Shown: in pieces, positions 35,383 through 64,000 of the stretch
How positions within the stretch are numbered: the stretch's first letter is position 1
How the letters are laid out: every line of letters begins with the position of its first letter
Assembly: GCA_021819135.1 (NCBI GenBank)
Contig: JAKASE010000001.1
Span: forward strand, 75,375 to 139,374
Source: Thermoplasmata archaeon
GTDB lineage: Archaea > Thermoplasmatota > Thermoplasmata > Lutacidiplasmatales > UBA184
DNA: 64,000 bases
Reading direction: 5' to 3'
Program-made: the position numbers and the translations under genes
The notes under the pieces: model-generated
Databases searched by the model: none
What the model saw: only the letters and a program-made list of their open reading frames with translations
What the model was told of the DNA's origin: nothing

Positions 35383-35455
35383 GCCACTGTAGCTCAGTCG
35401 GCAGAGCGGCTGATTCGTAATCAGCAGGTCGGGGGTTCAAGTCCCTCCAGTGGCT
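35383..35455 (+). tRNA. tRNA-Thr (CGU)
   Basis: 73-nt cloverleaf: acceptor GCCACTG/CAGTGGC, D-arm GCTCAGTCGGCAGAGC, anticodon loop TTCGTAA, T-arm GGGGGTTCAAGTCCCTC; TATA-like CTTATGA ~30 nt upstream. Confidence 0.85.
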
Positions 35456-41268: not shown

Positions 41269-42032
41269 CTACCACCCGTCTACTTCGGGATCGTAGTCAT
41301 CGAGGCGCTCGAACCCTTTCACTCCGAGGATCGACAGCGCCGAGGGGGAGTCGAGGACCATTTGCCGTATGGTTCCGAGCAGATCCTTCTTCTCCCGTTT
41401 CTCGAGATCCTTCAGCACCTTGTCCAGATCCACGAACGACCGTGGCTTACGCTTGTACGTCTCGAGGAGCGCCGCCACATGCTTGCAGGGGTAGTATTCG
41501 GACGGACACGTGCACTGGGCCTCCTTCTTCCGTCCGGCCGAGGCTTGGGTCCGGTACACGCCGGAGTTCCCTTGGATTCGGCAGACCAAGGTCGACCCGA
41601 CCTTCATCCGTTCCCGCATCCGTGGGGAGTCCACATACTCGTCCACCCGGTCCTCCCACGAACGCCCCATTGCCGGGCTCACTGGAGGTAGGCGAGGCCC
41701 GCGCAATCGAAGCACTCCTCCGGAGTGCCTCCCATCGACCCGCTCGGAAGATACGAGCGCTCGTAGCGCTCCGTGCTGTACTTGTAGAACGCGAAACCCC
41801 ACACGTCCGGCCGCCCGGCATACTCGAGCCGACAGAGGTGGGTCGGAACACTCTCCACCTTCCCCGGCGAATCCTCGTCATAGCAGTAGGCATCCACCTG
41901 GGCGTACCGCCCTCGGAAGCGAACCTCCACCCGAGCGCATCGCTCCCTCCATCGCTGCTGGGCGCGAGCCCGAAGCCGCCCGGTCAACTCCCGCCGCAGC
42001 TTCGGAGGGATTCCCTCCGTCGACCTCTTCAT
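41269..42032 (-). pseudogene. SWIM zinc-finger protein, apparently frameshifted (frames 42032->41679 and 41802->41269)
   Basis: CTCPSEYYPCKHVAALL SWIM signature (CxCx(n)CxH) in downstream frame; upstream frame starts ATG 42032 overlapping IS630 transposase stop (ATGA). Confidence 0.5.
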
Positions 42033-47008: not shown

Positions 47009-50000
47009 GTGCGCTGTTCAGGTAGCAAGTCGTCTTTCATTCCCAACCTCTATCTCCAGAACCTCTCCGCCGACCGGCTGTTCACCTGGTACGTTACCCT
47101 GAAGGCGACCTACGACGAGACCGATTACTGGATCATCCACAACGCGTGCACGACCCGGGAGGGTGTGACAAACCTGGGGAACAACGTCGTCCAGGGTCCC
47201 GCGTCGGTCTCGATGAGCGGGGGATCCGAGGACTCGACGACCTTGACCACTTCGGCCCAGGTGATCGAGAAGGGTACCAGCGATGTCGAGCTTCAGTGGA
47301 ATAACTCCATGATGGCGGATGGCCAAGGGGTCATCAGCCCGTCCATGGGCGGTAGTGGCCTCTCCGGGTTCGTCTACCAGGCGTCCTGGAACGACACTCA
47401 CACGTTCAGCAGTGGTGTGGCCTACGAAGCCGCCGTGAACACTTCGAGCTATCCGGGAGGTTGGAACAGCTCCTGGAAGCCGTCGATGTCCGCCGCCGAG
47501 CAGACCTCGTCACCGGTGCAGGCCACGAACTCCGTGTGTCAGTTCGTGTATCAGACCAACACGCTCAGCCTCCATGGACTCGTGGGGGTCGGAGGACCGA
47601 ACGACACCGCGACGGTGACTTGGTGGGCGAACGGCTTCGGGGTGGGCGTGCTCGAATACTCGGAGGTCGGCACGTCGTGGAGCCAGACCGTGACGTCGGT
47701 CGTAACGACCGATTCCAATGGGACTGACAAGTACACGGCGACCGTCCACGGCCTGCCCGGTACCGCGTTCTACTCCCTAACGGCCACGACGACGGTGGCC
47801 GCCGGGGGATGCCTCAGTCTCTCGAACGCGATCTCGTCCACGGCGTTCTTCGGACAAGGGTTCACGCTGACGCCGTTCGCGTACGCCTACGATTCGATCA
47901 CGCAGCAAGGTGGCGGTGAGGGGATCTACGCATACCTGTCGCCCCAGTTGTATACCCTCTACACGCAAAGCACGGTAAGTTCGACCGGAGGCTACCTGGA
48001 CTACGGACCGGCCAACGACGCGGGGCCGAACATCACCATCCCCATCTCGTCGCTATCTTCCATCACCTGTGGAGGGAACTGCTTCCTGGTGAACATCACG
48101 CCTACGAGTCCGAACCTGAACTATGTGGTCCAGGAGACGCTCAACTTCTCATGGGACGGCGGATCGTACTCCATGCACAGTGCTCCGACGACCTTCAACT
48201 ACCTCTGGGACACATCGGGGGATGGCCTGACGGATGCGGAGAAGGTCCGCGGCTGGAACGTGACCTACCAGGACCTTGCGGGCACCTACCACACCCGCCA
48301 CGTCACGGCCGAACCCAGCGCCTTTGCGACCAATGGACTCGTGGGAGACTACGTGGAGAAGGAGTTCGGGCTCGACCCGGGCACGGTCGACACGGCAGGC
48401 AGCCACATGCTCGATACATGGAACCTAACGTTCAATCTCCAGCCGGCAGGCGGGAGTCTACCTACCGGCTCGGACCTCCGAGTCTGGTACGAGAACTCGA
48501 CCTACGAGCCGTTCGCGGCAGGTCTTCAGTATTCCCACGGGCTCTATGAGACGGGCAATCCACCGGCCAGCGAGCGGAACGCGACCAACATCTCCGCCAC
48601 GGGAGGCGTCAACATCGGGGACGGGAGCCCATGGGCATCGACTGCGCTCTTCAGCTACCCCGCGCTCGAGACATTCGTCGGTCTGTCCGGTGTCCAGAAC
48701 GCGGGCTGGCTGCGGGCCGTCGAGGGGAGCTGGCAGGGGATCCCGACCCTCACGGTCGAAGGGAAGCTCTCTTGGGGGGCGGATCCCCTGGCCGCATCCA
48801 CCCCGAACGACGGGGTTTCGGACGGGGCGCGGGTCAACCCGCTCTACGATGTCGGTCTCGAGTTCCATTCCGTCTATGCGAACCTGACCGGGCTCGGGTC
48901 GGGCAACGATGGCAATGGCTACGCGGTCGAGATGGTCGAGGGCTACACCGATGATGGCGGGAACTGGCGATACATCAACAACTACTCCACGCCAGCGGTA
49001 TACGGCAACAGCAGCTCCCACCATGGAGACGTCACCGACTACACCACCACGTTGCCGGTGGGTCAAACCCAGCCGACCCAGACGATCTCGCTCGAGGTGG
49101 CGGAGAACATCACTCCGGGCCAGGGGCCCCAGCCGGCCTATATCAACGGGAGCGGTACCGGAATCTCCGAAACGTACGACCTCGTCCGAGGAGGCAATTT
49201 AGTCGTGAATGTCGTCGGCTGGTCCGGGCACGGCGGCTACTCCACGCTCTACGGGGTGTTCACGGAGGTGCCGATGGGAACCAAGGCGCCGACGTGGCTC
49301 TGGGTCCCCACGGACAACTCGACCGTCAACGGTCTCCCGATCGGCCTCCAGCGATACACCGGCGAGCAGTCGTTCGACCTCGTGGTCGTGAACGTCTCCT
49401 CCTCGGCCCTCTCCTCCGACCCGATCCCGCTCCCGTGGGGCGGGACGACACCGACCGGGATCCCGCTCTCGGCCGGCCTGAACGACTTCCTGGTCCCGCG
49501 GGAGCAGTTCCTCTACTCTCCCTTCGGCCAGGCGATCTTCCTCGGGAAGAGCACGAGCTTCAATGCCTCCCAAGCCCTGCCGTTCAACGGCTCGATCGAG
49601 TGGGGCGACATATCGGGGTTCGGCAGTCCGAACCCGATGGTCGACCTCGGCGCCTACTGGCAGAACCGGGCCATCGCCTCCGGACCGGGGAACATCACCG
49701 GGTATAACGAGACCGGTACCGCCGCGGGCACCACGGATGCCATCTCGGTGATGGTCGGTCCGTCCGCCACCACTGCCAACACCGGCGGCCTCCCCTCGAA
49801 CCCGAGCCTCTACTCGACCGTCGGCGATCCCTCGGCCCTGCAGTCCATCGTCACCCTCAACATCACCAGCCCGGACACGCTGGACCTCCTCCTCGCCGCC
49901 CTGCTCGATAACACCACGGGCGGATCCAACGCGGTGAACGGTACCCTCGAGTCCGTCACCTACCAGATCGGGTTCCTCGGACTGAACCCGACCGTACTCA

Positions 50001-51064
50001 ACGCGATCCCGAACGGGACAGAGCCGAACGACGGGCTCTACGGACAACCGAGCAGCACCTGGCCGCCGAACCCGCCGAGCAGCCTCTGGGGCTCCTTCTG
50101 GAACGCGGTCACGAGCTTTGTGGTCAACCCGCTCGGCACGGTCCTGTCGCTCGTCAACACCGTGTGGGACGCCGCTACGGCCGCGTTCACGTACCTGAAC
50201 CACCTCGCGCACGAAGCGGTCGCGATCGGGGCGGAGGTCGTGGCGCGGACCGCAGCCGCGATCGTGCAGGCGGGGAGGGAGATCGCGAACGCGTTCGAGG
50301 TGTTCTTGAACTGGCTCTACACGCTCGTCAAGGACGCACTTGCGGTGGTTATCGACCCGATACTTAACGCGGCCCAGAGTTTCGACAGCACTCTAGCGAC
50401 TCGGGCCAACGTGACTGTGAGCGACCAAGGCTCACTCGGTTACGTGACCCCCGCTGATGGGCTAACTTGGGCACGGGCATTCGACCCAGTAGCCTACCTT
50501 GGGTTTGCATTCGCAGTCGGTATCACCATCGTAATCGGGATTGTTACAGCCGTCACTCTAGGAGCAGGGTTCGTTGTCGGGGTGATCTTGTCCCTCATTC
50601 CCACGCTCGCGCAAGAGCTAATCCATGGACTGGCGACAGTGACGTCACTCACTTCGAGCGCGGTGACAACTCTCGAAGATAGCTTCTCCAACTCGGTCTC
50701 GCAGACTGACTGGGAAGCTTTGGCAGGTGCCGTATCGATCGGGGCGTCGAGCTTCGACTTCTTCTTTGCGTTGGCGACAGCGGCGATGAAGGGACTCACC
50801 AACACCATCGCAGGTACCCTCGCCCTCTCCATCATCGTTGACCTCGTCGTCTTTGTGGTGAGCATCGTGAACTGGGCGAGTCATCTCGCAGACATCGCCA
50901 TCGCCGCCCTCTTGCTGGCGGGCGCCGGAACGTATGTCGCGTTCAGAGCACTGGGTGCGAGCGCGAGCATTCCGGAATTGAAGACTTACGCCACCGTCTC
51001 CGTCATCTTGGCTGGAGTGGGACTTGCTGCTGCCGGGGCCGATGTCCATCTGGCGGAGTCGTGA
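47009..51064 (+). CDS. giant (1351 aa) N-glycosylation-sequon-rich surface protein with C-terminal multi-TM domain; no recognisable signal peptide
   Basis: >70 N-x-S/T sequons, S/T/G-rich beta-like sequence, 6-8 hydrophobic helices in last 300 aa; GTG start 12 nt after IS1634 end. Confidence 0.6.
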   Translation: MRCSGSKSSFIPNLYLQNLSADRLFTWYVTLKATYDETDYWIIHNACTTREGVTNLGNNVVQGPASVSMSGGSEDSTTLTTSAQVIEKGTSDVELQWNNSMMADGQGVISPSMGGSGLSGFVYQASWNDTHTFSSGVAYEAAVNTSSYPGGWNSSWKPSMSAAEQTSSPVQATNSVCQFVYQTNTLSLHGLVGVGGPNDTATVTWWANGFGVGVLEYSEVGTSWSQTVTSVVTTDSNGTDKYTATVHGLPGTAFYSLTATTTVAAGGCLSLSNAISSTAFFGQGFTLTPFAYAYDSITQQGGGEGIYAYLSPQLYTLYTQSTVSSTGGYLDYGPANDAGPNITIPISSLSSITCGGNCFLVNITPTSPNLNYVVQETLNFSWDGGSYSMHSAPTTFNYLWDTSGDGLTDAEKVRGWNVTYQDLAGTYHTRHVTAEPSAFATNGLVGDYVEKEFGLDPGTVDTAGSHMLDTWNLTFNLQPAGGSLPTGSDLRVWYENSTYEPFAAGLQYSHGLYETGNPPASERNATNISATGGVNIGDGSPWASTALFSYPALETFVGLSGVQNAGWLRAVEGSWQGIPTLTVEGKLSWGADPLAASTPNDGVSDGARVNPLYDVGLEFHSVYANLTGLGSGNDGNGYAVEMVEGYTDDGGNWRYINNYSTPAVYGNSSSHHGDVTDYTTTLPVGQTQPTQTISLEVAENITPGQGPQPAYINGSGTGISETYDLVRGGNLVVNVVGWSGHGGYSTLYGVFTEVPMGTKAPTWLWVPTDNSTVNGLPIGLQRYTGEQSFDLVVVNVSSSALSSDPIPLPWGGTTPTGIPLSAGLNDFLVPREQFLYSPFGQAIFLGKSTSFNASQALPFNGSIEWGDISGFGSPNPMVDLGAYWQNRAIASGPGNITGYNETGTAAGTTDAISVMVGPSATTANTGGLPSNPSLYSTVGDPSALQSIVTLNITSPDTLDLLLAALLDNTTGGSNAVNGTLESVTYQIGFLGLNPTVLNAIPNGTEPNDGLYGQPSSTWPPNPPSSLWGSFWNAVTSFVVNPLGTVLSLVNTVWDAATAAFTYLNHLAHEAVAIGAEVVARTAAAIVQAGREIANAFEVFLNWLYTLVKDALAVVIDPILNAAQSFDSTLATRANVTVSDQGSLGYVTPADGLTWARAFDPVAYLGFAFAVGITIVIGIVTAVTLGAGFVVGVILSLIPTLAQELIHGLATVTSLTSSAVTTLEDSFSNSVSQTDWEALAGAVSIGASSFDFFFALATAAMKGLTNTIAGTLALSIIVDLVVFVVSIVNWASHLADIAIAALLLAGAGTYVAFRALGASASIPELKTYATVSVILAGVGLAAAGADVHLAES

Positions 51065-52920: not shown

Positions 52921-54654
52921 CTCCGTCAGTCCAGCCCTCGAGGACCCGCGTCGAACAGTAACCCCGCCACGCCGATGGCTCCGAGGAGGGACCGCTGTTC
53001 CTTCGTCATCTCCGTCACGAGCCGGCGACGCCAGCCCGTCTTGGCGAGCTCGACCTCGTTCAGCATGATGGTGCGGAACTGGTCCAGGGCCTTCGCTCCC
53101 GTGAGCTCGTAATCGCGCATTCGGACGTGCAGTTCGACCACCCGCTCGAGGAGATAGGCGAGCACGCAGAGGAAGAGGTGGGCTTCGATCCGTCGCTCGA
53201 GGCGGTGGCGGATTGGGCGGACCTCCAGTCCGCTCTTCAGCTCCCGCCATCCCTGTTCGATGATCGAGAGCCCCATGTAGAGACGGGCGACCTCCTCGGG
53301 GGGAAGATCGGTGTCGGTGGTCAGTACCCACCAACCGGCCAGCCTCCGATCGCGTCGACGGCCTTCCTTGAGCTTCGCCGTCAATCCACGGACCGTCGCC
53401 TCGTCCCACTCGATCTCGAACAGGTCGGAGAGACCCTTTGCCGCCAGAGCGGCGTGGGCCTGTCGAAGGATCGTGTGATGGTGCCGAGGCCGCTTCGCCC
53501 AGGCACGGCGAAGCTGGTAGAGGATCGCCTCGCCCTGGGCGATCCTACGCCCGAGGTTCTCGAGCTCGGTCTTCCGTCGCTCCTCGTTCAAGAGGACGAT
53601 GAACCGTCGTCCCTCTCGGTCGATGACCTCACGGACCTGGTTCTGCTCGCTGACGGCCACTGGCGGGAGTTTCTGGGCCTGGAGGATGATCTCCTCCACG
53701 TTCCGATTGACCTCGGCGAGCACGTAGTGGAATCCGTGGGCGTGGAGGTCCGCGAGGACCTCCTCGCTCTTCATTCCCCGGTCGCCGACATAGGTCCCTT
53801 CCTTCAGTCCGAAGAGCCGGGTCAACCGGTCGACCATCCCGATGACCGTCGTGTTGTCGGTGGTGTTACCCGGATAGACCTGGAGGGTGATGGGGAGGCC
53901 CTCGGGCGTGACGACCATGCCCCAGCTGACCTGAGGCCGATCCGCTCGACGGTCTCTCGAGTAGCCGAACTGGGCGAGGGGACCTCCCTCGCCCTCGAAG
54001 TAGCTGGACGTGAGGTCGTGATAGAGCACTCCCGAGGATTGGCTCATTGGGCGCACGACCCGTTCGAACAGCTTCGGTTCGAACCGGTCCTTCGCTCGCC
54101 AGAAGGCATCCATCGCTCGGTAGAACAGGTTGTCGTGCAACCGCTCGGGGTCGAGGTGGAGGAAGAATGGAACGGCGGTGGTGGGCAACCACTCGAGGAG
54201 ACCATACTTCGAGGTCGGATCGTCGAGGCGGTTCAGCACGATCGCCTCGAGGAGCGCCGCGACCCGTCCCTTGTGCGGCACTCCATTAAGCGTTTCGAGG
54301 GCGAGTTGGTGGAGTCCAAGCTTCCGCCAGAGGAAGTGACCGATGGCCACTTTGCCGTAGCTCCACGACTGACGGACACTGAGCTCCGAGAGATCGGCGA
54401 TGTCCCGCGGTCGAGGAGCCAGGGGGAACCGCGGGTCGGTGGCCAGCCATCGACGGAGGTTCTCGATCTGCTCTGGAGTAACCCGACCGAAGTTGACCAG
54501 GACCTCGGTCCGGACCTTGGTTCCTTCCCGGATCCCTCGGGCCAACTGAGCGTAGGTCTGCCCCCGAGGACGAACGACCTTGATGTAGAGGCCTCGGGGC
54601 ACGCAGGGTAGAGAACTGACGAATAGATAGAAGTATCCAACGTATTCGATATGC
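52921..54654 (-). mobile_element. second IS1634-family element (different from the first); possible 11-bp imperfect direct repeat GTTATCCTA(T/C)A
   Basis: Repeat copies at 52910-52920 and 54655-54665; AT-rich 54620-54680 terminus; no clear terminal IRs found. Confidence 0.4.
52926..54602 (-). CDS. IS1634 family DDE transposase (558 aa)
   Basis: C-terminal LYMGLSIIEQGWRELKSGLEVRPIRH signature; family-typical length; GTG start. Confidence 0.85.
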   Translation of the reverse strand: MPRGLYIKVVRPRGQTYAQLARGIREGTKVRTEVLVNFGRVTPEQIENLRRWLATDPRFPLAPRPRDIADLSELSVRQSWSYGKVAIGHFLWRKLGLHQLALETLNGVPHKGRVAALLEAIVLNRLDDPTSKYGLLEWLPTTAVPFFLHLDPERLHDNLFYRAMDAFWRAKDRFEPKLFERVVRPMSQSSGVLYHDLTSSYFEGEGGPLAQFGYSRDRRADRPQVSWGMVVTPEGLPITLQVYPGNTTDNTTVIGMVDRLTRLFGLKEGTYVGDRGMKSEEVLADLHAHGFHYVLAEVNRNVEEIILQAQKLPPVAVSEQNQVREVIDREGRRFIVLLNEERRKTELENLGRRIAQGEAILYQLRRAWAKRPRHHHTILRQAHAALAAKGLSDLFEIEWDEATVRGLTAKLKEGRRRDRRLAGWWVLTTDTDLPPEEVARLYMGLSIIEQGWRELKSGLEVRPIRHRLERRIEAHLFLCVLAYLLERVVELHVRMRDYELTGAKALDQFRTIMLNEVELAKTGWRRRLVTEMTKEQRSLLGAIGVAGLLFDAGPRGLD

Positions 54655-54768: not shown

Positions 54769-56049
54769 TCAAGCAGGTATCGGCCGAAGGGCGCGCATGG
54801 CCGCCCGCACCCAGTCTGCAGGCGTGAACCGGATTCCGGTGGTCCGTCCGAGAAACCCTCTCTCGCGCTGGTAGGTGAGACGGGCGACGCACTCATACGG
54901 GTTGCCGTCGACATCGGAGACGAGGGCGGTCACGGTGAACTGCTCCTGATCCTCGAAACCCCCCACGTCGCCCAGATCAAACGACCGGGGAGTGTTGGCC
55001 CGGATCCCCGGTTCGGCGAACTCCGACATGGTGCCTCGCCCCGTCGTGACCCGCACACGTAGGCCCACGGCGTCCATTCCAGCGTTGAACACGTCGACGT
55101 AGAGATGGTGGAACAGGACGCCCTGCCCCCTCATCTGAATCCGGATGTCGGGCCGCACTCGTTCGATGCGGTCGAGGGCCGCTCGCCGCTCCGCTGCGAC
55201 CCGGGCGGTTTCCCGATCAGCTGCCTGCTGGAGGGCTTGCCTCTGCAGCTCGGCAGCCTGCTCCGCAGCAGCCCGGGCTTCGCTCGCGATTCGGGCTTGG
55301 GTCTGGATAGCGTCGGCGACGTTCTGCAGCTTGACCGCGATCCCGGCCAGGCCCTCCGACATTGCGAGGCTCTGCGCCTCGATCTTCGCCACGAGCCTGT
55401 CGGTCTGGGATGCGAAGGTCCCGACGAGTCTCTCCGTCTCAGCGAGTCTCGCGGCGGTCCCGATTCTCGAGGTCTCCTCGAGACGGTCGATGAGCCGATC
55501 GCCGTCGGTGCGGAAAGTCATTGAGTTGTACCGCGCGAATACGGCGAGCAGAGCGAGCGTGAGCACGAGGACCGCCAGTTCGACGAAGGGCACGTCGGCC
55601 TGTGGGACGACGGAGGCGAGCCCGGCCCAGAGGAAGCCCAACAGACCCGTCGCGGCGATTCCAATCGCTAAGAGCCCCCACGCAATCGTTCGGGCCCTCC
55701 AGAACTCGTGTCTAGCCACGTGGTCGAAAGTGCGGCCATCCGGCCGCAAGGCGTCCTTCTCGGACTGGCTCCGCAGAACCGCAACGGCCCAGAGGACCAG
55801 GGCAATCGAGCCGCCAAGGAGCGACGCGACTACCTCGTTGGTTCCGAAGCCCTCTGGATCGAACTCCCGGCCTAGGGCCAGCGCGACAGCGAGTCCGGAC
55901 CACCATACCACAGGAGGTAGGACGAACCACAGGTCGGTTGATCGCCCGATCGAGCCCGGCCTGAGCAGGTAGGTCCGCTTGGTCGCCACCGGCGGTGACC
56001 GGGGCGGCCCAACGGGCTCGGCGCCCTGGGATGAGTCGCTCGGAGTCAC
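54769..56049 (-). CDS. hypothetical membrane protein: 4 TM helices + long coiled coil + C-terminal beta-rich domain
   Basis: 426 aa, GTG start; Q/A/E-rich heptad region (AQSLAMSEGLAGIAVKLQNVADAIQTQARIASEARAAAEQAAELQRQALQQAAD). Confidence 0.5.
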   Translation of the reverse strand: MTPSDSSQGAEPVGPPRSPPVATKRTYLLRPGSIGRSTDLWFVLPPVVWWSGLAVALALGREFDPEGFGTNEVVASLLGGSIALVLWAVAVLRSQSEKDALRPDGRTFDHVARHEFWRARTIAWGLLAIGIAATGLLGFLWAGLASVVPQADVPFVELAVLVLTLALLAVFARYNSMTFRTDGDRLIDRLEETSRIGTAARLAETERLVGTFASQTDRLVAKIEAQSLAMSEGLAGIAVKLQNVADAIQTQARIASEARAAAEQAAELQRQALQQAADRETARVAAERRAALDRIERVRPDIRIQMRGQGVLFHHLYVDVFNAGMDAVGLRVRVTTGRGTMSEFAEPGIRANTPRSFDLGDVGGFEDQEQFTVTALVSDVDGNPYECVARLTYQRERGFLGRTTGIRFTPADWVRAAMRALRPIPA

Positions 56050-57295: not shown

Positions 57296-57449
57296 CACGG
57301 ACTCCCCACCAGGGGGCGTGGGCCCACCCGGATTCCGTGCGAGAACGGCCCCAGACCGTGCGTCGGGGCCGCTTTCGGGGCAGTGGATGGGCACCTACTA
57401 CCGCGATACAGTCCCACTTGGGTGGGGAATGGGTCAGGCGATGGTCCGG

Positions 57450-57809
57450 TCATGCCGTCGACCCGGGGTCGACCCCGGCCCCTTCCCCCTCGCGCGCATG
57501 TAGTGCTCGCGCGCCGGAAGCGTCAAGCGTCAAGCGCTCGGCGGTTTGGAGCCTCTTTCGGATGGATGCGATCAGGTTGGTCGTCACCCCGCGCTTGGCC
57601 TGGATCTGCCTGTAGGTCAGGCCTGCGAGCACGTCGGATTCGACCGCCTCTTGAACGGCGAGCTCCGCGGCGTCCGTCTCGGTCCGAAGCTCTCGAAGCC
57701 GCTCCCGGGCCGGTTTCCCGCGGGCCAAATACGCGAGCGTAGCCTTTGCCACGGCCTCGACGTCCCCCGCAAACTCCGGTCCCGTGAATTGCGCTTCCAT
57801 GTCCTGCAC
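57450..57809 (-). CDS. small HTH protein (sigma-70 region-4-like / LuxR-type helix-turn-helix)
   Basis: LAGLTYRQIQAKRGVTTNLIASIRKRLQ resembles LT.REIA..LG.S..TV; GTG start 57809 or ATG 57800. Confidence 0.5.
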   Translation of the reverse strand: MQDMEAQFTGPEFAGDVEAVAKATLAYLARGKPARERLRELRTETDAAELAVQEAVESDVLAGLTYRQIQAKRGVTTNLIASIRKRLQTAERLTLDASGARALHAREGEGAGVDPGSTA

Positions 57810-57917
57810 GTCGACCTCGATCTTGGACCCCGAAGTCCGAGCGTGAGGTACGGTAGGTCGGTCTCGGGAAGGGGGCCCAGGGCCCCGCGGCGATTGCCTT
57901 TTGGAGCCATCAGGTCT

Positions 57918-59600
57918 GAGTCTCCGACGGGGGAGTGATCCGCGTCTCCTCAGGCGCGCGGGAGGGTACCGCCCGGAGTTGCTCGTTGCTGGTAGCGACG
58001 AGCGAGGAGCCTCCCCTCGGATCGCAATCTGCTTCTTCTCCGACGGGGGAGGTACCGCCCTGAGGAACGAACAGCCGGCAGCGCCGGTTCACGCGACTCT
58101 GGACGTAAGATGATGTGCCGTTACGAAGCCAGACACGTTCCCGTGCGCGCGGAGCTCGCGTCCCAATGGCGGTGGCGTGAGCGTGTACGCCGATTCCTTC
58201 GCGCTCATGCTCGCGCCGTTCACGGACCCCGAACCCTAGCTGTGTCGCGCACGTGACGACTGGGGGAACCACGGTTACCGGACACCCGGACACTGGGTCT
58301 CTTCCGGTCGAGCGACCTCTCCTTGGGTGCGCCTTCGGGGCCGGGATCTCACCCTGCACCATGCACCCTTACACCGGGTCCCTTTCCCCCGAGCGAGCTC
58401 TCCGCGCTTGCGCGTTCGAGCCGGCACATCTTTCGGGATGCTGTCGGATCGATAGACGCTACCCGTTACTTGCTGCTGGCGCGCGCGTACCACACACACG
58501 CGAGGGAGGAACGGGTAGCTCGTCCGGACGAGCGGGACGAGAAGGGCGAGACGAGTCATTCCCTCGCGAGCACTTGCTCACACCGAGCACCGCTTGAGGT
58601 GTCGGCTCAGGTGGTCGAGGGGGAGAACGCTCCCTCGACCGTGGGGCACGGACACGGTCTGAACCCGACGGGGACCCTTGTCAGTTGACGGTTGAGGGTT
58701 CCGGCGCGCACGAACCACGCGCGGGTGAGGGGTACACGGTGGGCACTCGTCCGGGCGAGCCGGTGGGGACGCATGAGCGTCCCTTTGGAGGGGAGCGGGC
58801 CGATCGCGAATCTTGCCCCTTGCCCTGGGTCGGCTTCCTCCGAGCGAGCTCTCCACGCGACGCGCGTTCCGAGTTGACGTCCGCCGGACGCCAGGAGGAG
58901 GCGCGACGTTCGCAGTCACCGCAAGCGCGGGGAGGAGGGAGCGAACCATGCCCCCGCAAGCCCCTCGGAGCCCATGGATCGATGGTCAAAGTTCAACGTC
59001 GAGCGCGCGAGCACTACGCGCACGGGAGAAGAAGACCCGGGCGAGCCGGACGAGGACGAGTCACTCGGCCGGACGGGCAGCGAGTCTGATGCTGGCGTCC
59101 ACAAGGTCACAAGGGGGTCTCCATCCCCCGAGCGAGCTCTCCGCGCGACGCGAGTCCGGAGCGCCCTCGTCGGCCTCTTGGTTCGATGGGTGCCGCACGT
59201 CGGGAGGCGGCCCAATACGAGCGAGTACCCCGACTACGCGAGGAAGGCTCCTCCGAAAGACGTGAGAACATCCCTTGAGGACGAGTGGTTCCCAATTCCC
59301 ACATCCCGAGCCCCGGCGCGCGAGCACCACGCGCGGGGAAGGAGAAGGCGGATGGCACCGGGTCGGACGGGTTACTCGTCCGGACGAGTCGGCCGCTCGG
59401 ACGGGCTCACCGATCCCGCGCATCGTTTGACGTGGCGGGAGAGGTTGTCCCGGCGGACCAGGGTCCTGCATCCCCGGGGGCAGAGGATGCGATCCGAGCC
59501 GGACCAGTTCCCCAAGTGCTTGACGTTTGACGCTTCCGGAGCGTGCGAACTACGCGCGGGTGAGGGAGTAGGGGGGTTGACCGTTGACGGTTCCGGTATT
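57918..59600. repeat. GC-rich non-coding repeat cluster: 3 copies of CCGAGCGAGCTCTCC(G/A)CGCG..CGCG.GTTCGAG, 2 copies of ~50-nt TTGACG(G/T)TTGA(G/C)G(G/C)TTCCGG..GCG(C/T)GCGAAC(C/T)ACGCGCGGGTGAGG, several ACGCGCGGG/ACGCGCACGGG variants, and perfect 14-16-nt palindromes CTCGTCCGGACGAG
   Basis: Motif A at 58386-58420, 58837-58873, 59125-59160 (+ inverted partial 58143-58160); motif B at 58685-58733 and 59520-59570; palindromes 58518-58533 and 59384-59399; direct repeats TCTCCGACGGGGGAG at 57921-57935 and 58037-58051. Confidence 0.6.
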
Positions 59601-60091
59601 CGTTGCGACTTAGAGACCGACGTGCCGGAACCATCCTCGAAGTGGTGGCCGGTTCCCGGTTCCCCGGGCGGTACCTCCCCGCGCGCGGGGGACGAGACCG
59701 GGGTGGTATCGCTCCCGGACGAGCCGGACGAGTGGGACGAGCGGGACGAGCGCGGTTCGACGGGTGGCACGTTCGGCTCCTCGTGCGGATAGAGTTCGAG
59801 TGGGCCGGACCTTGGACTTGGACCCTCCGGCTCCGTGAACGCCTCCCCGCCCGGGACTTCGAGATAGACCGGACCGACGGACGACACGTGCCCCGGACTC
59901 TCTCGGTGGGTCAGGATGACCTCGGACCACAGAGGACCCCCGGTTTCCCAACCGGGATCGCGACGATGATCCTGGCCACAAAGGGCACATCGGGAGGCGG
60001 GAGCTCGGCCGATCACCTGGTCTCGGCAGTTGGAACAGACGAGTGGATCGCTGCCGCGGACACGCGGTCCGTCGTGGGTACAGGCCGTCAC
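59372..60091 (-). CDS. possible zinc-finger protein: N-terminal zinc ribbon (CSNC...CALCG), S/P-rich low-complexity middle, C-terminal C2HC finger (CPRGC...H...C)
   Basis: 239-aa ORF with ATG; mixed codon usage; 3' half overlaps repeat region so may be partly spurious. Confidence 0.3.
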   Translation of the reverse strand: MTACTHDGPRVRGSDPLVCSNCRDQVIGRAPASRCALCGQDHRRDPGWETGGPLWSEVILTHRESPGHVSSVGPVYLEVPGGEAFTEPEGPSPRSGPLELYPHEEPNVPPVEPRSSRSSHSSGSSGSDTTPVSSPARGEVPPGEPGTGHHFEDGSGTSVSKSQRIPEPSTVNPPTPSPARSSHAPEASNVKHLGNWSGSDRILCPRGCRTLVRRDNLSRHVKRCAGSVSPSERPTRPDE

Positions 60092-60275
60092 GGCTCAACT
60101 CGAACGGCGCAATCCCGGTGTTCGGACGATTGGGGCTCTCCACTCGGGGGGAATGGTGGTACCACTTTGCCGAAGCGCCGACGGGCGGCCTCTACCGGGT
60201 TGCTCCGGATAGGCCGTTTGTTCCGACTGCGGATCCTGCGGTAATCCACAGCCCGAACGAAGCCCGGCGACCCGT

Positions 60276-60737
60276 TCATGCGGTCTCACCCCCGAATGAA
60301 CGCGTTACCGGCCCTCGGGCGGTCCCGGACGGGTCGGAAGGGGTCTCGGGGGCGGTACGTGTCCGGACGCTGGAGTCCGGGCCGCTTCTCGCGTGATTTC
60401 GGCGCCGACGCAGGAGCCGCGCCTTCGCCTCCTCGCTCATGGGCCGCCCGGGGCGGTACTGCGGGTTCTCGAAGGCGAAGTAGGTGTCGAACTCGGGCTC
60501 GGCATGGCGGACCAGGTACGCCTCGTCCCAGGACTTGGTCCGACAGGAGAAGAACCACCCGGTACCGCCATCGGAGCAACCCGCCCCGCGGTGATCGATG
60601 AACTCGTACCGACGGACCCCGTGCCGGCCGGTCTCATGTGCCAGGGTCGCCGCCGGGATGTCCTCGGTCCGGCGGCTCTCCTTTCGGTCGGCTTTTCCGC
60701 TCTCGCCCGGGCGCGGGTGGTAGGCGAGGGCGGTCAT
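60276..60737 (-). CDS. hypothetical protein (153 aa), coupled to upstream ORF
   Basis: ATG 60737 overlaps upstream stop (ATGA); conserved-looking core WFFSCRTKSWDEAYLVRHAEPEFDTYFAFE. Confidence 0.4.
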   Translation of the reverse strand: MTALAYHPRPGESGKADRKESRRTEDIPAATLAHETGRHGVRRYEFIDHRGAGCSDGGTGWFFSCRTKSWDEAYLVRHAEPEFDTYFAFENPQYRPGRPMSEEAKARLLRRRRNHARSGPDSSVRTRTAPETPSDPSGTARGPVTRSFGGETA

Positions 60738-61075
60738 GGTTCCGCCTCCTTGAGCCGGACCCAATCGCTCCCCCGGACGACCGAGCCCTCGCCGTAGAGC
60801 CGACCGAGGACGCTGTCGATCTCGGCGGGCGAATACGCCATCGATACCAGCCGGTCCCGGAGGGTCTGTTCTCCGTAGCCCGCTGAGTTGCCGGCGAGTT
60901 CGCGTTGGAGAGCTGAGACCCCCTCCGCAATCCGTCGGTCGTGTTCGGAGTCTCCCGCTCTCGGCTCGGGCGGATCCGGGCCGTGGCCTGGGGTCGGTCC
61001 GGAGATGTGCCGCCACCTACCGCGCTCGTCAGAGGATGGGGTGTCGGCGGCATGTGGGTCTGACAACTGGCCCAT
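60734..61075 (-). CDS. hypothetical protein (113 aa)
   Basis: ATG 61075; lies between intron 5' end and downstream coupled ORF. Confidence 0.4.
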   Translation of the reverse strand: MGQLSDPHAADTPSSDERGRWRHISGPTPGHGPDPPEPRAGDSEHDRRIAEGVSALQRELAGNSAGYGEQTLRDRLVSMAYSPAEIDSVLGRLYGEGSVVRGSDWVRLKEAEP

Positions 61076-61171
61076 CGCGCGTACACCCGCCTGCGCGGAC
61101 GCGGTAGGCGGTACACCGTTCGTGGGAGGTTGTGAGAGCGACGTGTCCACGTCCCCCTTTTTCCCGTCAGA

Positions 61172-63036
61172 GTGCGCCGAGCAACCATGGAGACCAGCAA
61201 CGACCCAAGCTACACGGTAAGTCGTAGCGGAAGGCAGGGTGTCGGGGGAAACCCCGAATCTGAAGGGCCTGACCCGCAAGCTCGTGGGCCGAAGGAAGAC
61301 GAACCGACAACCAGCCTCCTCGCGGAAGGACGACCCTGTTCTGACGGGGGGAAGTCGTGTGTGGCGTACGGCGAGGAGGTGTGTGAGGTCGGCACGCGGG
61401 TATCGGGCCTCCATGGTGACCTCGGGATGCCCTCGGTCCTCCCGGCCGTGGCAAGGAAGGAAGCCTCGGGGTTGGGACCCCGATGGCGAATGGCCCGAGC
61501 TACGGGAAGGGTAGACCTCGTGGCAACACGAGGACGAAGGGACCAGGGTGGCAGAGGGAGCCGTAGTAGTCGTGACGGCCGGGGAAACCCGGAACGAGCG
61601 AAGGGCTCCCGGTCGGCCAAGGGTGGCGCGGAAAAGACCGGCGGAGTGACTTCCCGAGGGCGGGCACGGAATGGTGGGACGACCCATCCCATCCTCTACG
61701 GAGAGCCGCCAAGGGAGGGGAAGGGCGCGGAGCGCCCTCCGAGTCGGTCGAGTGCCATCGGGGAGAACCACCCATGAAGCCGCTTCCGAAGTGGACGGGG
61801 CAGAAGCATTCCTCGCTGATGCCCCTGCTGTTTCGGAAGAAGACCCTCCAGGCGGCATGGGAGCAGGTGAGGAGGAATGGAGGAGCCCCGGGGATAGACG
61901 GCGAGACGGTGGAGGAGTTCGGAGAACATGCGAAGGAACGGCTGTGGGAACTGTCGGAGGAACTCCGACTGCACACGTGGCAGCCGAAGCCGTTGCGTCG
62001 AGTCTGGATACCGAAGCCGGACGGCCGGAAGCGAGGACTGGCCATCCCGAGCGTGGAGGACCGGGTGGTGCACGCCGCCATCGCCATCGTGCTCTATCCG
62101 ATGTTCGAGGACGTGTTCGGGGAGGCGTGCTTCGCGTATGTCCCGGGGAAGAACGCCCAGCAAGCAGTAGCGCGAGTAGCGGAGAAGGGACGAGCGGGGA
62201 AGGAATGGGTCGTGGAGACCGATGTGGCCTCGTTCTTCGACACGGTGGATCGGCGGCGACTGGTGGGGAAGCTCGCGGCGAGGATCGCGGACGGGAGCTT
62301 CCTTCGACTGGTGGGCCAAGTCGTTCGGTCCGGCGTGCTGGGAGAGCGGACCACAGAGGAGAGTGCCGAGGGAATCCCGCAAGGGAGTCCCCTGTCGCCC
62401 CTCCTGGCGAACATCTATCTCGCGGAGTTTGACCGAGAGGTAGGGAAGCGCTGGGAGTTGACGCGGTATGCCGACGACCTCGTGGTGCAGTGCGCCACGA
62501 GGGAGGAAGCGGAAGCGGCCCAGGAGGAGGTGGAGTCCGCCCTCGGGAACGAAGGGCTGACCATGAAGCCGGAAAAGACGCGTGTGGTGTCGTTGCGAGA
62601 GGGGGTGGACTTTCTGGGGTATCGCATCACCCTCGGGGGCGTCTGGCCCTCGGAGAAGTCGGTGAAGCGGCTTCAGGAGAAGGTACGCTCCCTGACGCTG
62701 CGGCACGAGACGCGTCCGCTGAAGGAAGTGGTGCAACGGGTGATGCCCGTGATTCGCGGGTGGACGAACTACTTCTCGATGACCGAGCCATCTCGGCTCT
62801 GGAACCTGGGGATGTGGATTCTGGACCGAATTCGCCTGTGCGCCGTGAAGCACTGGTGGCGAGTGAAGTGGCAGAAAGAAGCGTCCTCCGCACGGCTGTA
62901 CGGGCTGGGATTGAGGCTACCGTATGTCCTCCTCAAGTGGGGCGCCCGATGAGGCCGAGAAAGCCGTGTGCGCTAAACGCGCCCGCACGGTTTGGGGTGG
63001 CGGACGGCGGGGAGTAACCTCCGCCTCCGACCCTAT
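61172..63036 (+). mobile_element. group II intron (~1.86 kb): 5' GUGCG, domain I-IV with IEP ORF, domain V (62961-62993), domain VI with bulged A, 3' end ~63036
   Basis: GTGCG at 61172-61176; RT/maturase ORF in domain IV; DV AAGCCGUGUGCGC-UAAA-CGCGCCCGCACGGUUU with AGC triad and 2-nt bulge; DVI GGCGGGGAG-UA-A-CCUCCGCC. Confidence 0.75.
61774..62952 (+). CDS. group II intron-encoded reverse transcriptase/maturase (RT + X domains, no endonuclease domain)
   Basis: RT blocks: RVWIPKPDGRKRGLAIP (RT1-2), FAYVPGKNAQQAV, SFFDTVDRRRL, IPQGSPLSPLLANIYL (RT5), YADDLVVQC (RT5 YADD); maturase X tail. Confidence 0.9.
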   Translation: MKPLPKWTGQKHSSLMPLLFRKKTLQAAWEQVRRNGGAPGIDGETVEEFGEHAKERLWELSEELRLHTWQPKPLRRVWIPKPDGRKRGLAIPSVEDRVVHAAIAIVLYPMFEDVFGEACFAYVPGKNAQQAVARVAEKGRAGKEWVVETDVASFFDTVDRRRLVGKLAARIADGSFLRLVGQVVRSGVLGERTTEESAEGIPQGSPLSPLLANIYLAEFDREVGKRWELTRYADDLVVQCATREEAEAAQEEVESALGNEGLTMKPEKTRVVSLREGVDFLGYRITLGGVWPSEKSVKRLQEKVRSLTLRHETRPLKEVVQRVMPVIRGWTNYFSMTEPSRLWNLGMWILDRIRLCAVKHWWRVKWQKEASSARLYGLGLRLPYVLLKWGAR

Positions 63037-64000
63037 AGAAGGGGGTGGCGGCACATCTCCGGGAGGTTTCGGCGGATCCCCCTTCCTTCCCGCGCCTTCG
63101 TGGGTCGGCTCGGGCGGTGGGGTGACCCGAGCCTTGACCCCTCGAAGGAACGTTCTCTTCTCCTTCCCGCGGCGCTCGGAGCTGACGCGGGGGTGAGCCC
63201 GGCGGATCGCGGCCGCGACCTCCCGGGGGCTGGGCGGCTCCTCGACGTTTTCCTCCTCCGCCACCTCGTCCACTCGCTTCACCACGTCGTCCAGGGCGAC
63301 TTCCCCCTCGGGATCGTCTACGAGTTCGTGCTCAGCGACCCACAGAGCCGGGTCGGACGACCGCACCCACTTGTCCGCGATGTCGACCGGGAGCGCGGTG
63401 AAGCGCCCCTGTTTCAGCAACCGACGCGAGGCGTCGAAGAACGTGCGGAAGATCCCCGCCCTCTCCTCGAGGAGCTCGGCGGCGAAATCGGGGCGCTCGT
63501 CCTTCGGTTCCACCTTGACTTCCCAGGCGACGAGAAGGATCCGGACCCAGAACGCCGGGGTGGCCCCGGGGACCCTCGGAAGGCGGTTGCAGGAGAAGAC
63601 GAGCTTCGCCGACGGGCGGAACTTGAACGGGTGCTGATACTTCCGCTGAGCCGAGATCTCGTCCCGACCGCCCGTGAGCTCCTGGACCAGACCGACGTTG
63701 CGGATCAACTTCCACGGAATGTCGCTGCGGACGTTCGCGATTTTGTCGGCGATCTCCGCGGCGAGGAACTTGTCGTCCGCGAGACCCGAGAGGTCGATCG
63801 CGGCGATGTTGTCGGTTCCGTAGACCCCGTTGAGGACGGCCGTGAAGGTCGACTTGCCCGTGGTCGATGGCCCCCACAGGACCAGCATCTTCCGCAGCGA
63901 GTTCCAGGGCCAGAGCAGATAGCCGGAGAACTCGAGGATCGCATCTCTCGTCTCGTGGTTCGGGAGGGCCTGCTCGAGGAACTTCTCGAATCGGGGGCAC
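62917..64000 (-). CDS. phage/plasmid P4-family primase C-terminal / D5-like SF3 helicase, 5' partial (continues beyond window end); C-terminal tail read through antisense intron
   Basis: Frame open to position 64000: ...FSGYLLWPWNSLRKMLVLWGPSTTGKSTF (Walker A) ...ELTGGRDEISAQRKYQHPFKFRPSAKLVFSCNRLP; residues after ~aa 284 map inside intron DV/DVI and RT ORF. Confidence 0.7.
   Translation of the reverse strand, partial: CPRFEKFLEQALPNHETRDAILEFSGYLLWPWNSLRKMLVLWGPSTTGKSTFTAVLNGVYGTDNIAAIDLSGLADDKFLAAEIADKIANVRSDIPWKLIRNVGLVQELTGGRDEISAQRKYQHPFKFRPSAKLVFSCNRLPRVPGATPAFWVRILLVAWEVKVEPKDERPDFAAELLEERAGIFRTFFDASRRLLKQGRFTALPVDIADKWVRSSDPALWVAEHELVDDPEGEVALDDVVKRVDEVAEEENVEEPPSPREVAAAIRRAHPRVSSERRGKEKRTFLRGVKARVTPPPEPTHEGAGRKGDPPKPPGDVPPPPSIGSEAEVTPRRPPPQTVRARLAHTAFSASSGAPLEEDIR

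Follow-up and report, generated by a model that had tools for sequence, protein, structure and literature searches.

A degenerate tandem array of ~300-bp units beside the replicase operon of an integrated archaeal element: a possible replication or maintenance region

An array of repeats occupies the largest intergenic gap of a ~31-kb island that has integrated at tRNA-Thr on an archaeal MAG contig; the repeats are noncoding, nucleic-acid-level elements. The motifs are modules of one degenerate ~300-bp tandem unit, not independent families as the preliminary description had them. Coordinates refer to the window, the 64,000-nucleotide stretch of the contig that was analyzed; the gene-free gap spans 57911 to 60275 (2.4 kb). 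We think it quite possible, though we propose it only tentatively, that the array is a cis-acting, iteron-type replication/maintenance region of the integrated element.

RESULTS

Genomic setting of the array

The host is an uncultured, nonhalophilic, high-GC archaeon. Matches to DUF5771, DUF7577, and HTH_45 had prompted the idea of a haloarchaeal host, which we rejected because the core proteins are basic (pI 7.2 to 9.9). The array sits between two operons: directly upstream of it is one for a PrimPol/D5_N/SF3-helicase replicase, and downstream of it is an HTH-PrsW operon. It begins 524 nt past the final gene of the replicase (PrimPol/D5_N/DUF5906) operon. The genes on both sides are without exception on the minus strand, and nearly all motifs have the opposite orientation. 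The GC content of the gap is 67 to 70% without coding constraint, versus 58 to 65% in other island DNA. The repeats earlier placed at 57918 to 59600 are present, but the repeat-bearing stretch is larger, running from 57479 to ~59752, and the remainder of the gap (59753 to 60275) is repeat free. Three transposase genes (IS elements) are found in the island, whose sole integrase is 22 kb from the array, at the tRNA-Thr att site; the att repeat is 14 nt long.

A small HTH-like protein gene (57450 to 57910, minus strand) forms the left border of the array. Its product has 119 aa from a GTG at 57809; in relatives it has 153 aa from an ATG equivalent to 57910, and the window carries a 1-nt indel near 57826. 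The protein is 90 to 92% identical in the relatives L071 and L072 and gave no match in Pfam or in a PDB sequence search. On the other side, the last gene of the replicase operon (60276 to 60737, minus strand) encodes a 153-aa protein and overlaps the replicase stop codon. Only two homologs of this protein were found, searches of IMG/VR and of PDB sequences returned no match, and its AF2 model (pLDDT 41) is unusable.

The replicase gene itself is split into an upstream part (63041 to 64000, minus strand), which runs past the window, and a 3′ exon-like remainder (60734 to 61172, minus strand), which encodes the C-terminal domain. Between them, antisense to the gene, lies a group II intron (61173 to 63040, plus strand) with a GTGCG 5′ end, an RT/maturase open reading frame (ORF) at 61774 to 62952, and domain V/VI; it is context, outside the array proper. 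The 847-aa replicase product matches Pfam Prim-Pol, D5_N, and DUF5906 as well as DNA-primase PHROGs, and it was scored as a relative of the P4-family primases. Its C-terminal 138 aa were modeled from the single sequence with AF2, giving an H-H-H-strand-strand topology and a pLDDT of 74 to 88 for residues 69 to 132; the best Foldseek matches to this model include winged-helix domains, all at E>0.2 and not significant. Among the neighbors at 52.9 to 64 kb and in a 6.7-kb extension of the contig, no ParA/ParB-like Pfam matches were found. A PADLOC run on the neighboring proteins gave no match, and a search with the DNA of 57400 to 60400 found no similarity among PLSDB plasmids and INPHARED phages.

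Repeat modules and unit architecture

All of the motifs reported in the preliminary description were recovered at the positions given there, well in excess of chance, among them the three copies of a first motif at spacings of about 450 and 290 nt. This motif A (core CCGAGCGAGCTCTCCRCGCG, ~47 nt including flanks) is found at 58376, 58827, and 59115, with spacings of 451 and 288; the three matches compare with 0.11 expected, and three were reached in 0 of 100 shuffles. A fourth, degenerate copy lies at ~58295 to 58325. Motif B (GCGCGCGAGCACYACGCGCGGG), with four matches versus 0.00 expected, is present at 58704, 59003, and 59316 on the plus strand and at 57493 to 57514 on the minus strand, with weaker copies at 59539 and 58478. 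GGAGG-like tracts are seen behind the B boxes. The two ~50-nt copies of a second motif correspond to 58685 to 58731 and 59520 to 59566 (85% identity over 47 nt), and a third copy, inverted, is at 57479 to 57541. The two perfect 14- to 16-nt palindromes are likewise there: CTCGTCCGGACGAG is perfect at 58519 and 59375, the latter copy extending to 16 nt (ACTCGTCCGGACGAGT), and imperfect at 58746 (one mismatch) and 59064 (two mismatches). The direct 15-mers (TCTCCGACGGGGGAG) are located at 57921 and 58037.

The 7-mer GGACGAG occurs 11 times on the plus strand of the 2.4 kb (0.6 expected) and three times on the minus strand (1.1 expected), and GGACGAGT is enriched 62-fold. The GGACGAG iterons are arranged in direct arrays in 9-bp phase and in perfect inverted pairs. 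The orientation of the motifs shows a strong strand bias. An inverted pair of 23-nt repeats, 91% complementary (57954 to 57976 and 59664 to 59686), brackets most of the array.

These motifs follow a fixed order. Each unit has an A box, followed by a single CGCGCG-N7-9-CGCGCG dyad or two of them, with a G-rich tail, and then by the perfect 14- to 16-bp palindrome, in which GGACGAG iterons are the building blocks. The edges of the array are occupied by T-B modules and an inverted box pair. Full-length alignment relates unit U2 to U3 (z=13.6) and U1 to U3 (z=11.8), with only 48 to 61% identity between paralogous units.

At the left edge, an inverted long T-B module (57479 to 57541, minus strand; TTGACGnTTGACG, a CGCGCG-N-CGCGCG dyad, and a G-rich tail) overlaps the HTH gene at its 3′ end, a short distance upstream of the PrsW gene, and is 100% identical in L071. 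It is followed by a patch (57921 to 58065, plus strand) that is nearly identical in L071 and L072 and contains two copies each of TCTCCGACGGGGGAG and GGTACCGCCC and a hairpin-like inverted repeat with a 9-bp stem at 57983 to 58005. The degenerate A box A0 (58295 to 58330, plus strand) is the copy-number break-point relative to L071 and L072, where an intact A box is found. The segment at 58376 to 58826 (plus strand) consists of U1, with an A box at 58389, a weak dyad at 58478, the palindrome at 58519, and two GGACGAG copies, and of a subunit, U1b, with a T-B module at 58685 to 58731 and the palindrome at 58746.

U2 (58827 to 59114, plus strand) has its A box at 58840, a B′ dyad at ~58911 to 58942, a B dyad at 59003 to 59024, GGACGAG direct repeats at 59038 to 59060, and a degenerate palindrome at 59064 that is perfect in L072 and L073. 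U3 (59115 to 59511, plus strand), the best conserved unit (95 to 97% identity in relatives), has its A box at 59128, a B′ dyad at ~59219 to 59248, a B dyad at 59316 to 59337, and the 16-bp perfect palindrome at 59374 to 59389. The right edge is made up of a T-B-T module (59512 to 59600, plus strand; TTGACGTTTGACG, dyad, G-rich tail, and a second TTGACCGTTGACG), which has 0 to 1 substitutions relative to L073, and of a segment at 59657 to 59752 (plus strand), in which an inverted GGGAGGGTACCGCCC box (59664 to 59686), pairing with 57954 to 57976, precedes a 9-bp-periodic run of GGACGAG iterons, four to five in number (59690 to 59750; TRF period 9, 4 copies).

Variation and conservation among relatives

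For comparison we used three close, diverged relatives from public assemblies (L071, L072, and L073), in each of which the array is present; comparative power is low because there are only three. A further sequence (L002) is an identical fragment, and two relatives found via the 153-aa protein (L003 and L004) are on contigs that end before the array. Motif order and spacing are alike in the window, L072, and L073, and CTCGTCCGGACGAG occurs once per unit in all three, the U2 copy of the window being degenerate. The number of units, counted as A boxes, is 2, 3(+1), or 6 depending on the strain, with the break-point inside the A box. The entire segment from 58376 to 58826 (U1 and U1b) is missing from L072, in which an IS66-family transposase has inserted immediately behind position 59579; L073 has a larger array than the window and lacks the HTH gene.

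Conservation is concentrated in islands. Relative to L073, the B, T, P, and C positions are ~4.7% divergent, all motif positions together 6.5%, and nonmotif positions 10.6% (P = 0.012 for all motif versus nonmotif positions); within the array alone, the difference has a P value of 0.058, and relative to L072 no difference between motif and nonmotif divergence was seen. The A boxes diverge at the background rate, and the B and T boxes are nearly free of substitutions. The stretch from 59150 to 59700 is ~95.6% identical to L073, equal to the flanking coding DNA, with other parts at 76 to 82%. The 14-bp palindrome is perfect in nine copies over three strains (10 including one-mismatch copies) despite the 48 to 61% identity of the units, a drift implying that the motif islands have long been under selection.

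These data bear on a less favored reading, in which the array is a nonfunctional, satellite-like tandem duplication, that is, a relic (such as a dead origin or decayed sequence) kept only by recent common ancestry and homogenized by recombination. The island is decaying, as seen from its three transposase genes, the antisense group II intron in the replicase gene, and the frameshifted HTH gene; among relatives, the IS66 insertion, the loss of the HTH gene, and the unstable copy number point the same way, as do the background divergence of the A boxes and the lack of a clear motif effect against L072 and within the array against L073. We nevertheless regard this reading as somewhat unlikely: it does not account for palindromes that stay perfect in degenerate units, for GGACGAG iterons that are both enriched and phased, for B and T boxes almost without substitutions, or for a GC content that persists above that of other island DNA without coding constraint.

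Coding, RNA, and mobile-repeat readings

The repeats had been described as DNA or RNA elements rather than coding repeats, and our analysis agrees. Mechanical ORFs are plentiful in DNA of 68% GC, the GC3 frame plot is flat, and the copies of the motifs occupy different reading frames. ORFs in the gap are not conserved, and none matched a Pfam or PHROG family. Substitutions versus relatives, sorted by codon position (21, 14, and 15 in one comparison and 10, 6, and 7 in another), have no third-position bias, and GC1 to GC3 are flat for the ORFs within the longer L073 array.

A genuine protein-coding gene with low-complexity repeats, for example, the annotated 272-aa ORF at 58974 to 59792, is therefore a reading to which we give almost no weight, given that third positions are not favored by substitutions. 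The NCBI and Logan gene callers do call ORFs in the array, one plus-strand frame has few in-frame stops, and 202 codons are kept in L072 at 93% identity. However, a 7-nt deletion in L073 just past the start codon of the 272-aa ORF leads to loss of the start, leaving an 82-aa fragment to be called, and among 1.84 billion representative proteins homologs were found at the orthologous locus only. A weak 3-base periodicity (GC by codon position, 0.67/0.63/0.74; P = 4e-4) also speaks for a gene, but it arises because of the 9-bp iteron arrays. We also considered that the T-B copies could be remnants of duplicated HTH-gene ends, as they encode similar peptides (LTLDASGA, LTFDASGA, and LTVEGSGA); this idea was rejected because the similarity is confined to the motif and the differences are not synonymous biased.

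It is improbable, in our judgment, that the units give rise to a family of small structured RNAs or to one long noncoding RNA (ncRNA), including B boxes that mimic CRISPR repeats as a hairpin plus purine tail. The array is GC rich, conserved without coding, and rich in possible local hairpins, its motifs are strongly strand biased, and sliding windows in 58400 to 58700 (plus strand) reach fold z scores of −2.2 to −3.5. On the other hand, z scores are near 0 in most windows, and 58470 to 58700 folded as a single piece gives −1.36. A search of 57300 to 61300 against Rfam 15 found nothing at the gathering score and three chance-level matches at E values of 1.6 to 7.9. RNAalifold on eight units returned a covariation term of +0.41, a value whose power is limited by the few sequences. 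Candidate stems break in relatives; the hairpins at 57983 to 58005, where the L073 changes are not compensatory, and at 58590 to 58650 are both broken in L073. TATA boxes are absent from the region, as are runs of ≥4 T or A that could act as archaeal terminators, although the background, too, has few of them, and perfect loopless palindromes are a signature of protein sites, not of RNA. In the repeat-free remainder of the gap, the minus strand of 60130 to 60290 is more stably folded than shuffled sequences (z = −3.1 to −4.25), with no compensatory changes versus L073.

The suggestion of a structured ncRNA family is thus not borne out, with no Rfam match beyond chance even at E≤10 and unremarkable fold z scores. 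Judged by the refuting condition that the preliminary description itself set (motifs confined to this place and no structural covariation), both this reading and the MITE-like one fail. It appears extremely unlikely that the repeats are a cluster of mobile elements, MITE-like or IS derived, even though the 23-nt inverted pair brackets most of the array and IS elements are active in the island and in relatives. No motif copy lies elsewhere in 70.7 kb of contig (the window plus 6.7 kb). Among 185,579 representative genomes, which do not include the source genome, motif A gave 66 single chance matches, all in high-GC bacteria, none multicopy or archaeal, and it is absent from IMG/VR viral contigs. 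In JGI metagenomes, the T-B pattern had 0 matches, and the gapped B-palindrome pattern had 10 loci, all chance matches with no similarity and no array. The units are tandem, head to tail, rather than dispersed; terminal inverted repeats (TIRs) do not surround each unit, and recombination within A boxes explains the structural variants.

Two other repeat systems were considered and set aside. A CRISPR array, already doubted on account of the irregular spacing, does not fit copies that are 60 to 85% identical, spacings of 451/288 and 226/299/313/223, and several interleaved motif types; no association of cas or transposase genes with the units was seen. Like CRISPR arrays and MITE/REP repeats, the array consists of short GC-rich palindromic repeats in noncoding DNA, but it differs from them in its irregular spacing, several motif types per unit, and lack of dispersed copies. 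For an integron cassette array, there is no adjacent IntI, and, on reading the sequence, the A-box unit borders are without RYYYAAC/GTTRRRY cores.

DISCUSSION

Among the earlier suggestions, an array of regulatory or terminator hairpins came closest. The perfectly preserved loopless palindromes and the phased 9-bp iterons, however, resemble protein-binding DNA sites rather than terminators or RNA hairpins. We infer that the motifs are double-stranded DNA binding sites for dimeric or oligomeric proteins encoded by the element; the candidate binders are the replicase, through its winged-helix-like C-terminal domain, and the HTH protein encoded next to the array. Against the HTH protein as the binder, L073 keeps the array without the HTH gene.

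One way to read such sites is as a transcription-regulatory region, in which a repressor of the element, e.g., the HTH protein, would use the dyads and palindromes as operators to control read-through or several promoters (perhaps of an ncRNA) between the replication and HTH-PrsW operons. Operators are typically dyad symmetric, an HTH gene is adjacent with a T-B module at its 3′ end, next to PrsW, the minus-strand genes face motifs of nearly uniform opposite orientation, and GGAGG-like tracts follow the B boxes. Yet there is no gene within 2.4 kb to control, the array region has no TATA/BRE-like elements, unlike host promoters, which do show clear AT-rich TATA boxes, and the array is larger in the strain without the HTH gene; we consider this reading rather unlikely. 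A sigma-70 promoter scan, which has no bearing on an archaeon, found 0 sites.

Under the iteron-type reading that we tentatively prefer, the array would be an origin, possibly combined with copy-control or partition sites: an initiator would bind the repeated sites, oligomerize, and open and prime the DNA, much as at P4 ori/crr or plasmid iteron regions, and unequal recombination between A boxes would change the number of units. Several observations sit uneasily with an origin. Classical iteron origins are far smaller and more uniform than the array. An AT-rich unwinding element is absent, the lowest 40-nt window being 50% GC, and hexamers with ≥5 A/T number just 10 in the 3.1 kb scanned (57300 to 60400). 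The cumulative GC skew has a local, not global, minimum at ~58 kb and is dominated across the island by the IS elements and the intron. In this strain, the array may be a relic, its conservation reflecting recent common ancestry or recombination, because the replicase is interrupted by the antisense group II intron and the island has three IS elements.

A bolder idea, which we rate as a long shot, is that the array is a new kind of archaeal episome origin/maintenance element or a source of repeat-derived small RNAs (e.g., CRISPR-repeat mimics). Such an element could be GC rich and free of AT tracts, with ~300-bp units that carry a perfect palindrome, Z-DNA-prone CGCGCG dyads, and phased GGACGAG iterons; by analogy with F sopC or herpesvirus FR/TR repeats, it could act as a multisite loading/tethering platform for a PrimPol-helicase replicon.

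To our knowledge, hardly any origin or maintenance site of an archaeal plasmid or integrated element has been characterized beyond Sulfolobus pRN1 and a few haloarchaeal replicons, and we know of almost nothing on such origins in uncultured high-GC archaea. Should the array prove to be the cis-acting partner of the PrimPol/SF3-helicase replicase, a family in which a stem-loop is the sole origin mapped so far would also include an iteron-style one, and this origin would do without an AT-rich unwinding element. Binding studies and vector design would then have defined motifs to work with (GGACGAG, CTCGTCCGGACGAG, and CGCGCG-N7-CGCGCG). As a relic, the array would be no more than what a decaying island ordinarily leaves behind.

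Among known systems, phage P4 offers a close parallel. In P4, the sites are copies of an octamer, some direct and some inverted, which in crr lie within longer (~120 bp) direct repeats; in our array, too, longer direct repeats adjoining the replicase gene enclose a 7- to 8-mer iteron in both orientations. Both elements have a multifunctional primase with an SF3-type helicase; the C-terminal domain is a winged helix in P4 and a predicted winged-helix-like fold here. In P4 alpha, the winged-helix domain binds the origin repeats (PMC4234260, citing Ziegelin & Lanka 1995 and Yeo et al. 2002); here, binding is inferred. The array also differs from P4 in having an archaeo-eukaryotic PrimPol instead of Toprim, unrelated sequences, an archaeal host, at least 3 to 6 units of ~300 bp over ~1.8 to 2.8 kb, extra motif types, and high GC without an AT stretch.

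The closest characterized archaeal analog is the pRN1-type replicase, which uses a single stem-loop, not iterons. Its architecture of PrimPol, SF3 helicase, and C-terminal winged helix resembles that of our replicase, in which the winged helix is a prediction. The pRN1 origin, in noncoding DNA just 3′ of the replication operon and downstream of orf904, is one ~100-nt stem-loop with no iteron structure (PMC4234260), whereas here a long repeat array is found, and the only stem-loop-like candidate, at 60130 to 60290, is without comparative support. In pTN2, pP12-1, and pT26-2, origins are predicted in the largest intergenic region beside the replication cassette, and the most AT-rich part of an archaeal plasmid is typically where its predicted origin lies (PMC2926602). 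The position of the array, in the largest intergenic region adjoining the replication cassette, is like that in these plasmids and pRN1; unlike in pTN2, pP12-1, pT26-2, and their integrated relatives, the array is 67 to 70% GC and lies at only a local skew minimum.

Two bacterial systems resemble the array in other respects. The noncoding region (NCR) of the Vibrio cholerae PLE is large and contains four repeat types, only one of which is the ori iteron, needed for replication (PMC7145576). As here, a multikilobase-scale noncoding region with several repeat families resides in an integrated mobile island; the PLE differs in its bacterial host, RepA_N initiator, iterons with an A-tract, and lack of a higher-order ~300-bp unit. 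The second system is the F plasmid centromere. F sopC consists of 12 units of 43 bp, each with an inverted repeat bound by SopB. A unit of our array is seven times the length of a sopC unit and is degenerate apart from its motifs, and ParA/ParB-type genes were not detected nearby, but, as in a sopC-type centromere, tandem units with a strictly conserved palindrome and a variable copy number lie beside maintenance genes.

Genomic context of the repeat array

The GC content of the window is 67.7%, and an exact protein match assigns it to contig DAIFDS010000079.1 of MAG GCA_027377435.1. Archaeal core genes occupy the left half (EF-1alpha, archaeal topoisomerase I, LonB, and archaeal signal peptidase), and their protein products are basic (pI 7.2 to 9.9); we therefore take the host to be an uncultured, non-halophilic, high-GC archaeon. 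Past tRNA-Thr (35383-35455), GC falls to 58-65%, and just beyond it lies a tyrosine integrase gene with a C-terminal zinc ribbon (35816-36742), followed by three transposase genes and a PrimPol/D5_N/DUF5906 primase-helicase gene. The tRNA 3' end recurs as an exact 14-nt repeat 31.3 kb downstream (66733-66746 in the coordinates of the extended contig, L001), which suggests that the two are putative att sites bounding an integrated element of ~31 kb. The three DDE transposase genes (42029-43171, minus strand; 45275-46996, plus; 52926-54602, minus) differ from one another, and the extreme local GC skew of the one at 45.3-47.0 kb dominates the cumulative skew curve of the island. Two large ORFs with coding-like GC3, of 1351 aa (47009-51064, plus) and 426 aa (54769-56049, minus), have no match in Pfam, PHROG, or PADLOC.

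The largest intergenic region of the island is a 2.4-kb gap (57,911-60,275) flanked by two groups of minus-strand genes; it lies immediately 3' of a PrimPol and SF3-helicase replicase operon. On its left are an HTH-like gene (57450-57809/57910) and then PrsW-like and DUF5771-like genes. In two diverged relatives of the locus, L071 (SRR31012007, found via the HTH protein) and L072, the HTH-like gene encodes 153 aa from an ATG equivalent to 57910; a 1-nt indel near 57826 means that, in the window copy (minus strand), either the reading frame is broken or translation begins at GTG 57809. On the right, the operon consists of the replicase gene and then a gene for another 153-aa protein (60276-60737, minus), for which 5.8 billion proteins yielded only two homologues, each directly following a replicase-like gene. 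Conservation is strong in the core of the protein (...FIDHxGxGCSDGxxGWFFSCR..SWDEAY...), and fold prediction gave no fold. Just downstream of its stop, 60130-60290 (minus) folds clearly better than shuffled sequences (z -3.1 to -4.25) and could be a terminator, a 3'-UTR structure, or a pRN1-like stem-loop; compensatory changes were not found against a third relative, L073.

The replicase gene (60734 to 64000, minus) contains a complete group II intron in antisense orientation (61173-63040, plus), with GTGCG at 61173, an RT/maturase ORF (61774-62952), and a domain V/VI Rfam match (62959-63036). Joining 63888..63041 to 61172..60734 restores an in-frame ORF of 1287 nt; hence the intron disrupts the gene and is not spliceable from its mRNA. 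A hairpin followed by T5 (61140-61165) directly precedes the intron on the plus strand. Bacterial class C introns target sites of this type, and the arrangement is noteworthy in an archaeon.

The repeats are modules of one unit

All elements listed in the preliminary description of the gap, a cluster of GC-rich repeats and palindromes, were recovered and are non-random. Motif A has three matches, at 58389, 58840, and 59128 (versus 0.11 expected), and motif B occurs at 58704, 59003, and 59316 and inverted at 57493 (four versus 0), with weaker copies at 59539 and 58478. There are also two ~50-nt copies (58685-58731 and 59520-59566), the palindrome CTCGTCCGGACGAG at 58519 and 59375, and the 15-mer TCTCCGACGGGGGAG at 57921 and 58037; no further copy was found in the rest of the window or the next 6.7 kb of contig. 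By unbiased k-mer count the dominant word is GGACGAG(T): GGACGAG occurs 11 times on the plus strand versus 0.6 expected, with a 62-fold enrichment of the 8-mer. Inverted pairs of this word are the palindromes, and direct runs have a 9-bp phase (e.g., four copies at 59717-59752).

These "families" belong together as modules of a single higher-order unit, repeated on the plus strand as U1 (from 58376), U2 (58827-59114), and U3 (from 59115), with whole-length similarity of z=13.6 for U2 versus U3 and z=11.8 for U1 versus U3. In its canonical order, a unit runs from an A box through 163-188 nt with a B-like dyad (B') to the B dyad (CGCGCG-N7-CGCGCG plus a G-rich tail), the palindrome (59-61 nt from the dyad, start to start), and, 64 nt on, the next A box. 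Longer T-B modules (TTGACGnTTGACG, then the dyad) lie at the array edges (57541-57479, minus; 58685 and 59520, plus), as does an inverted box pair (57954-57976 and 59664-59686).

Comparison with relatives argues against a coding or RNA role

A 272-aa ORF (58974-59792) is annotated in the NCBI record and has weak 3-base periodicity (p=4e-4), which we attribute to the 9-bp iteron runs. A HMMER search with this ORF against 1.84 billion representative proteins returned only two matches (93% and 87% identity), and their contigs are diverged copies of the array locus itself: L072 (ENA ERZ27233565) and L073 (Logan SRR31012000). Substitutions between the ORF and its relatives are spread over codon positions ([21,14,15] and [10,6,7]), a 7-nt deletion immediately follows the start codon in L073, and GC1-3 is flat in the ORFs called within the L073 array, which is the longer one; thus, the 272-aa ORF is not a gene. 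GC3 is likewise flat over 57,900-60,300, with flanking genes reaching 0.78-0.89, and gap ORFs have no Pfam or PHROGs match. That the region is a real gene is extremely improbable, in agreement with the earlier view of the repeats as noncoding.

Unit number differs among strains, as expected from unequal recombination. L072 lacks window 58323-58821, with the junction within an A box, and the L073 array is ~1.15 kb longer, with six A boxes, seven B boxes, and five palindromes; the canonical motif order is common to the window, L072, and L073. An IS66-family transposase gene in L072 (1652-2371) is inserted exactly past the T-B module matching window 59579, and the L072 array is cut off there. Identity is 87-97% between orthologous units and only 48-61% between paralogous ones; the 14-bp palindrome is nevertheless perfect in nine copies from the three strains. 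Divergence from L073 is 6.5% at motif and 10.6% at nonmotif positions (p=0.012), with B and T boxes nearly unchanged and A boxes diverging at the background rate; this contrast was not seen against the closer relative L072. Conservation is patchy, with 76-82% identity in 57920-58338 and 58800-59000 and ~95.6% in 59150-59700, on par with adjacent coding DNA.

Noncoding RNAs, one of the preliminary suggestions, are very unlikely: no Rfam family matched the array at gathering score or at E≤10, RNAalifold found no covariation support, and candidate stems are broken in L073. Fold z-scores are ordinary in sliding windows except at 58400-58700, which as a single piece gives only -1.36. TATA boxes are clear in host promoters; in the gap, by contrast, AT-rich hexamers are almost wholly lacking and T or A runs of ≥4 do not occur, making independent archaeal transcription units unlikely. 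The other suggestion, MITE-like elements, is scarcely credible: motif A gave nothing beyond single chance matches across 185,579 genomes and had no match in IMG/VR, and no true relatives of two motif B patterns were found in JGI metagenomes. Nor has the array DNA any similarity to plasmid or phage records. Imperfect copies, irregular spacing, and mixed motifs bear out the initial exclusion of CRISPR.

A candidate replication or maintenance region

Loopless perfect palindromes, dyads with conserved spacers, and short phased iterons that persist while the rest of the unit drifts form the signature of double-stranded DNA sites for dimeric or oligomeric proteins rather than of RNA. The array is thus probably a noncoding set of protein-binding sites. 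An operator array seems distinctly unlikely; the HTH-like gene is absent from L073 (143 nt in place of 507 nt), which has the longer array. The binding-site signature, the position 3' of the replicase operon, and the P4 and PLE precedents lead us to favor, tentatively, a cis-acting iteron-type replication or maintenance region, in which the array would be the partner of the element's replication module and hold the sites for its dimeric or oligomeric proteins. Against this reading, an AT-rich unwinding element was not found in the array, L073 does not have the HTH-like gene, and GC skew is uninformative on origin position. The antisense intron cutting the replicase of the window strain would fit a relic of a once-active origin, which we consider unlikely.

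As an iteron-type region, the array would be a lineage-restricted, architecturally unusual form of the repeat-rich cis-acting region of a mobile-element replication module; it matters chiefly because origins of archaeal integrated elements are so poorly characterized. Its intergenic position resembles that of the pRN1 origin, mapped directly 3' of the replication operon (PMC4234260), and of the pTN2, pP12-1, and pT26-2 origins, predicted from intergenic DNA rich in repeats (PMC2926602). The pRN1-type replicase, however, works with a stem-loop rather than iterons (PMC4234260). P4 alpha, the archetype of the helicase family, binds origin repeats via a C-terminal winged-helix domain (PMC4234260); the last 70 residues of the replicase are predicted to form helix-helix-helix-strand-strand (pLDDT 74-88), and Foldseek returned no significant match to this model. 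The precedent for a region of several repeat types is the large noncoding region of the Vibrio PLE, in which only one type is the ori iteron (PMC7145576).
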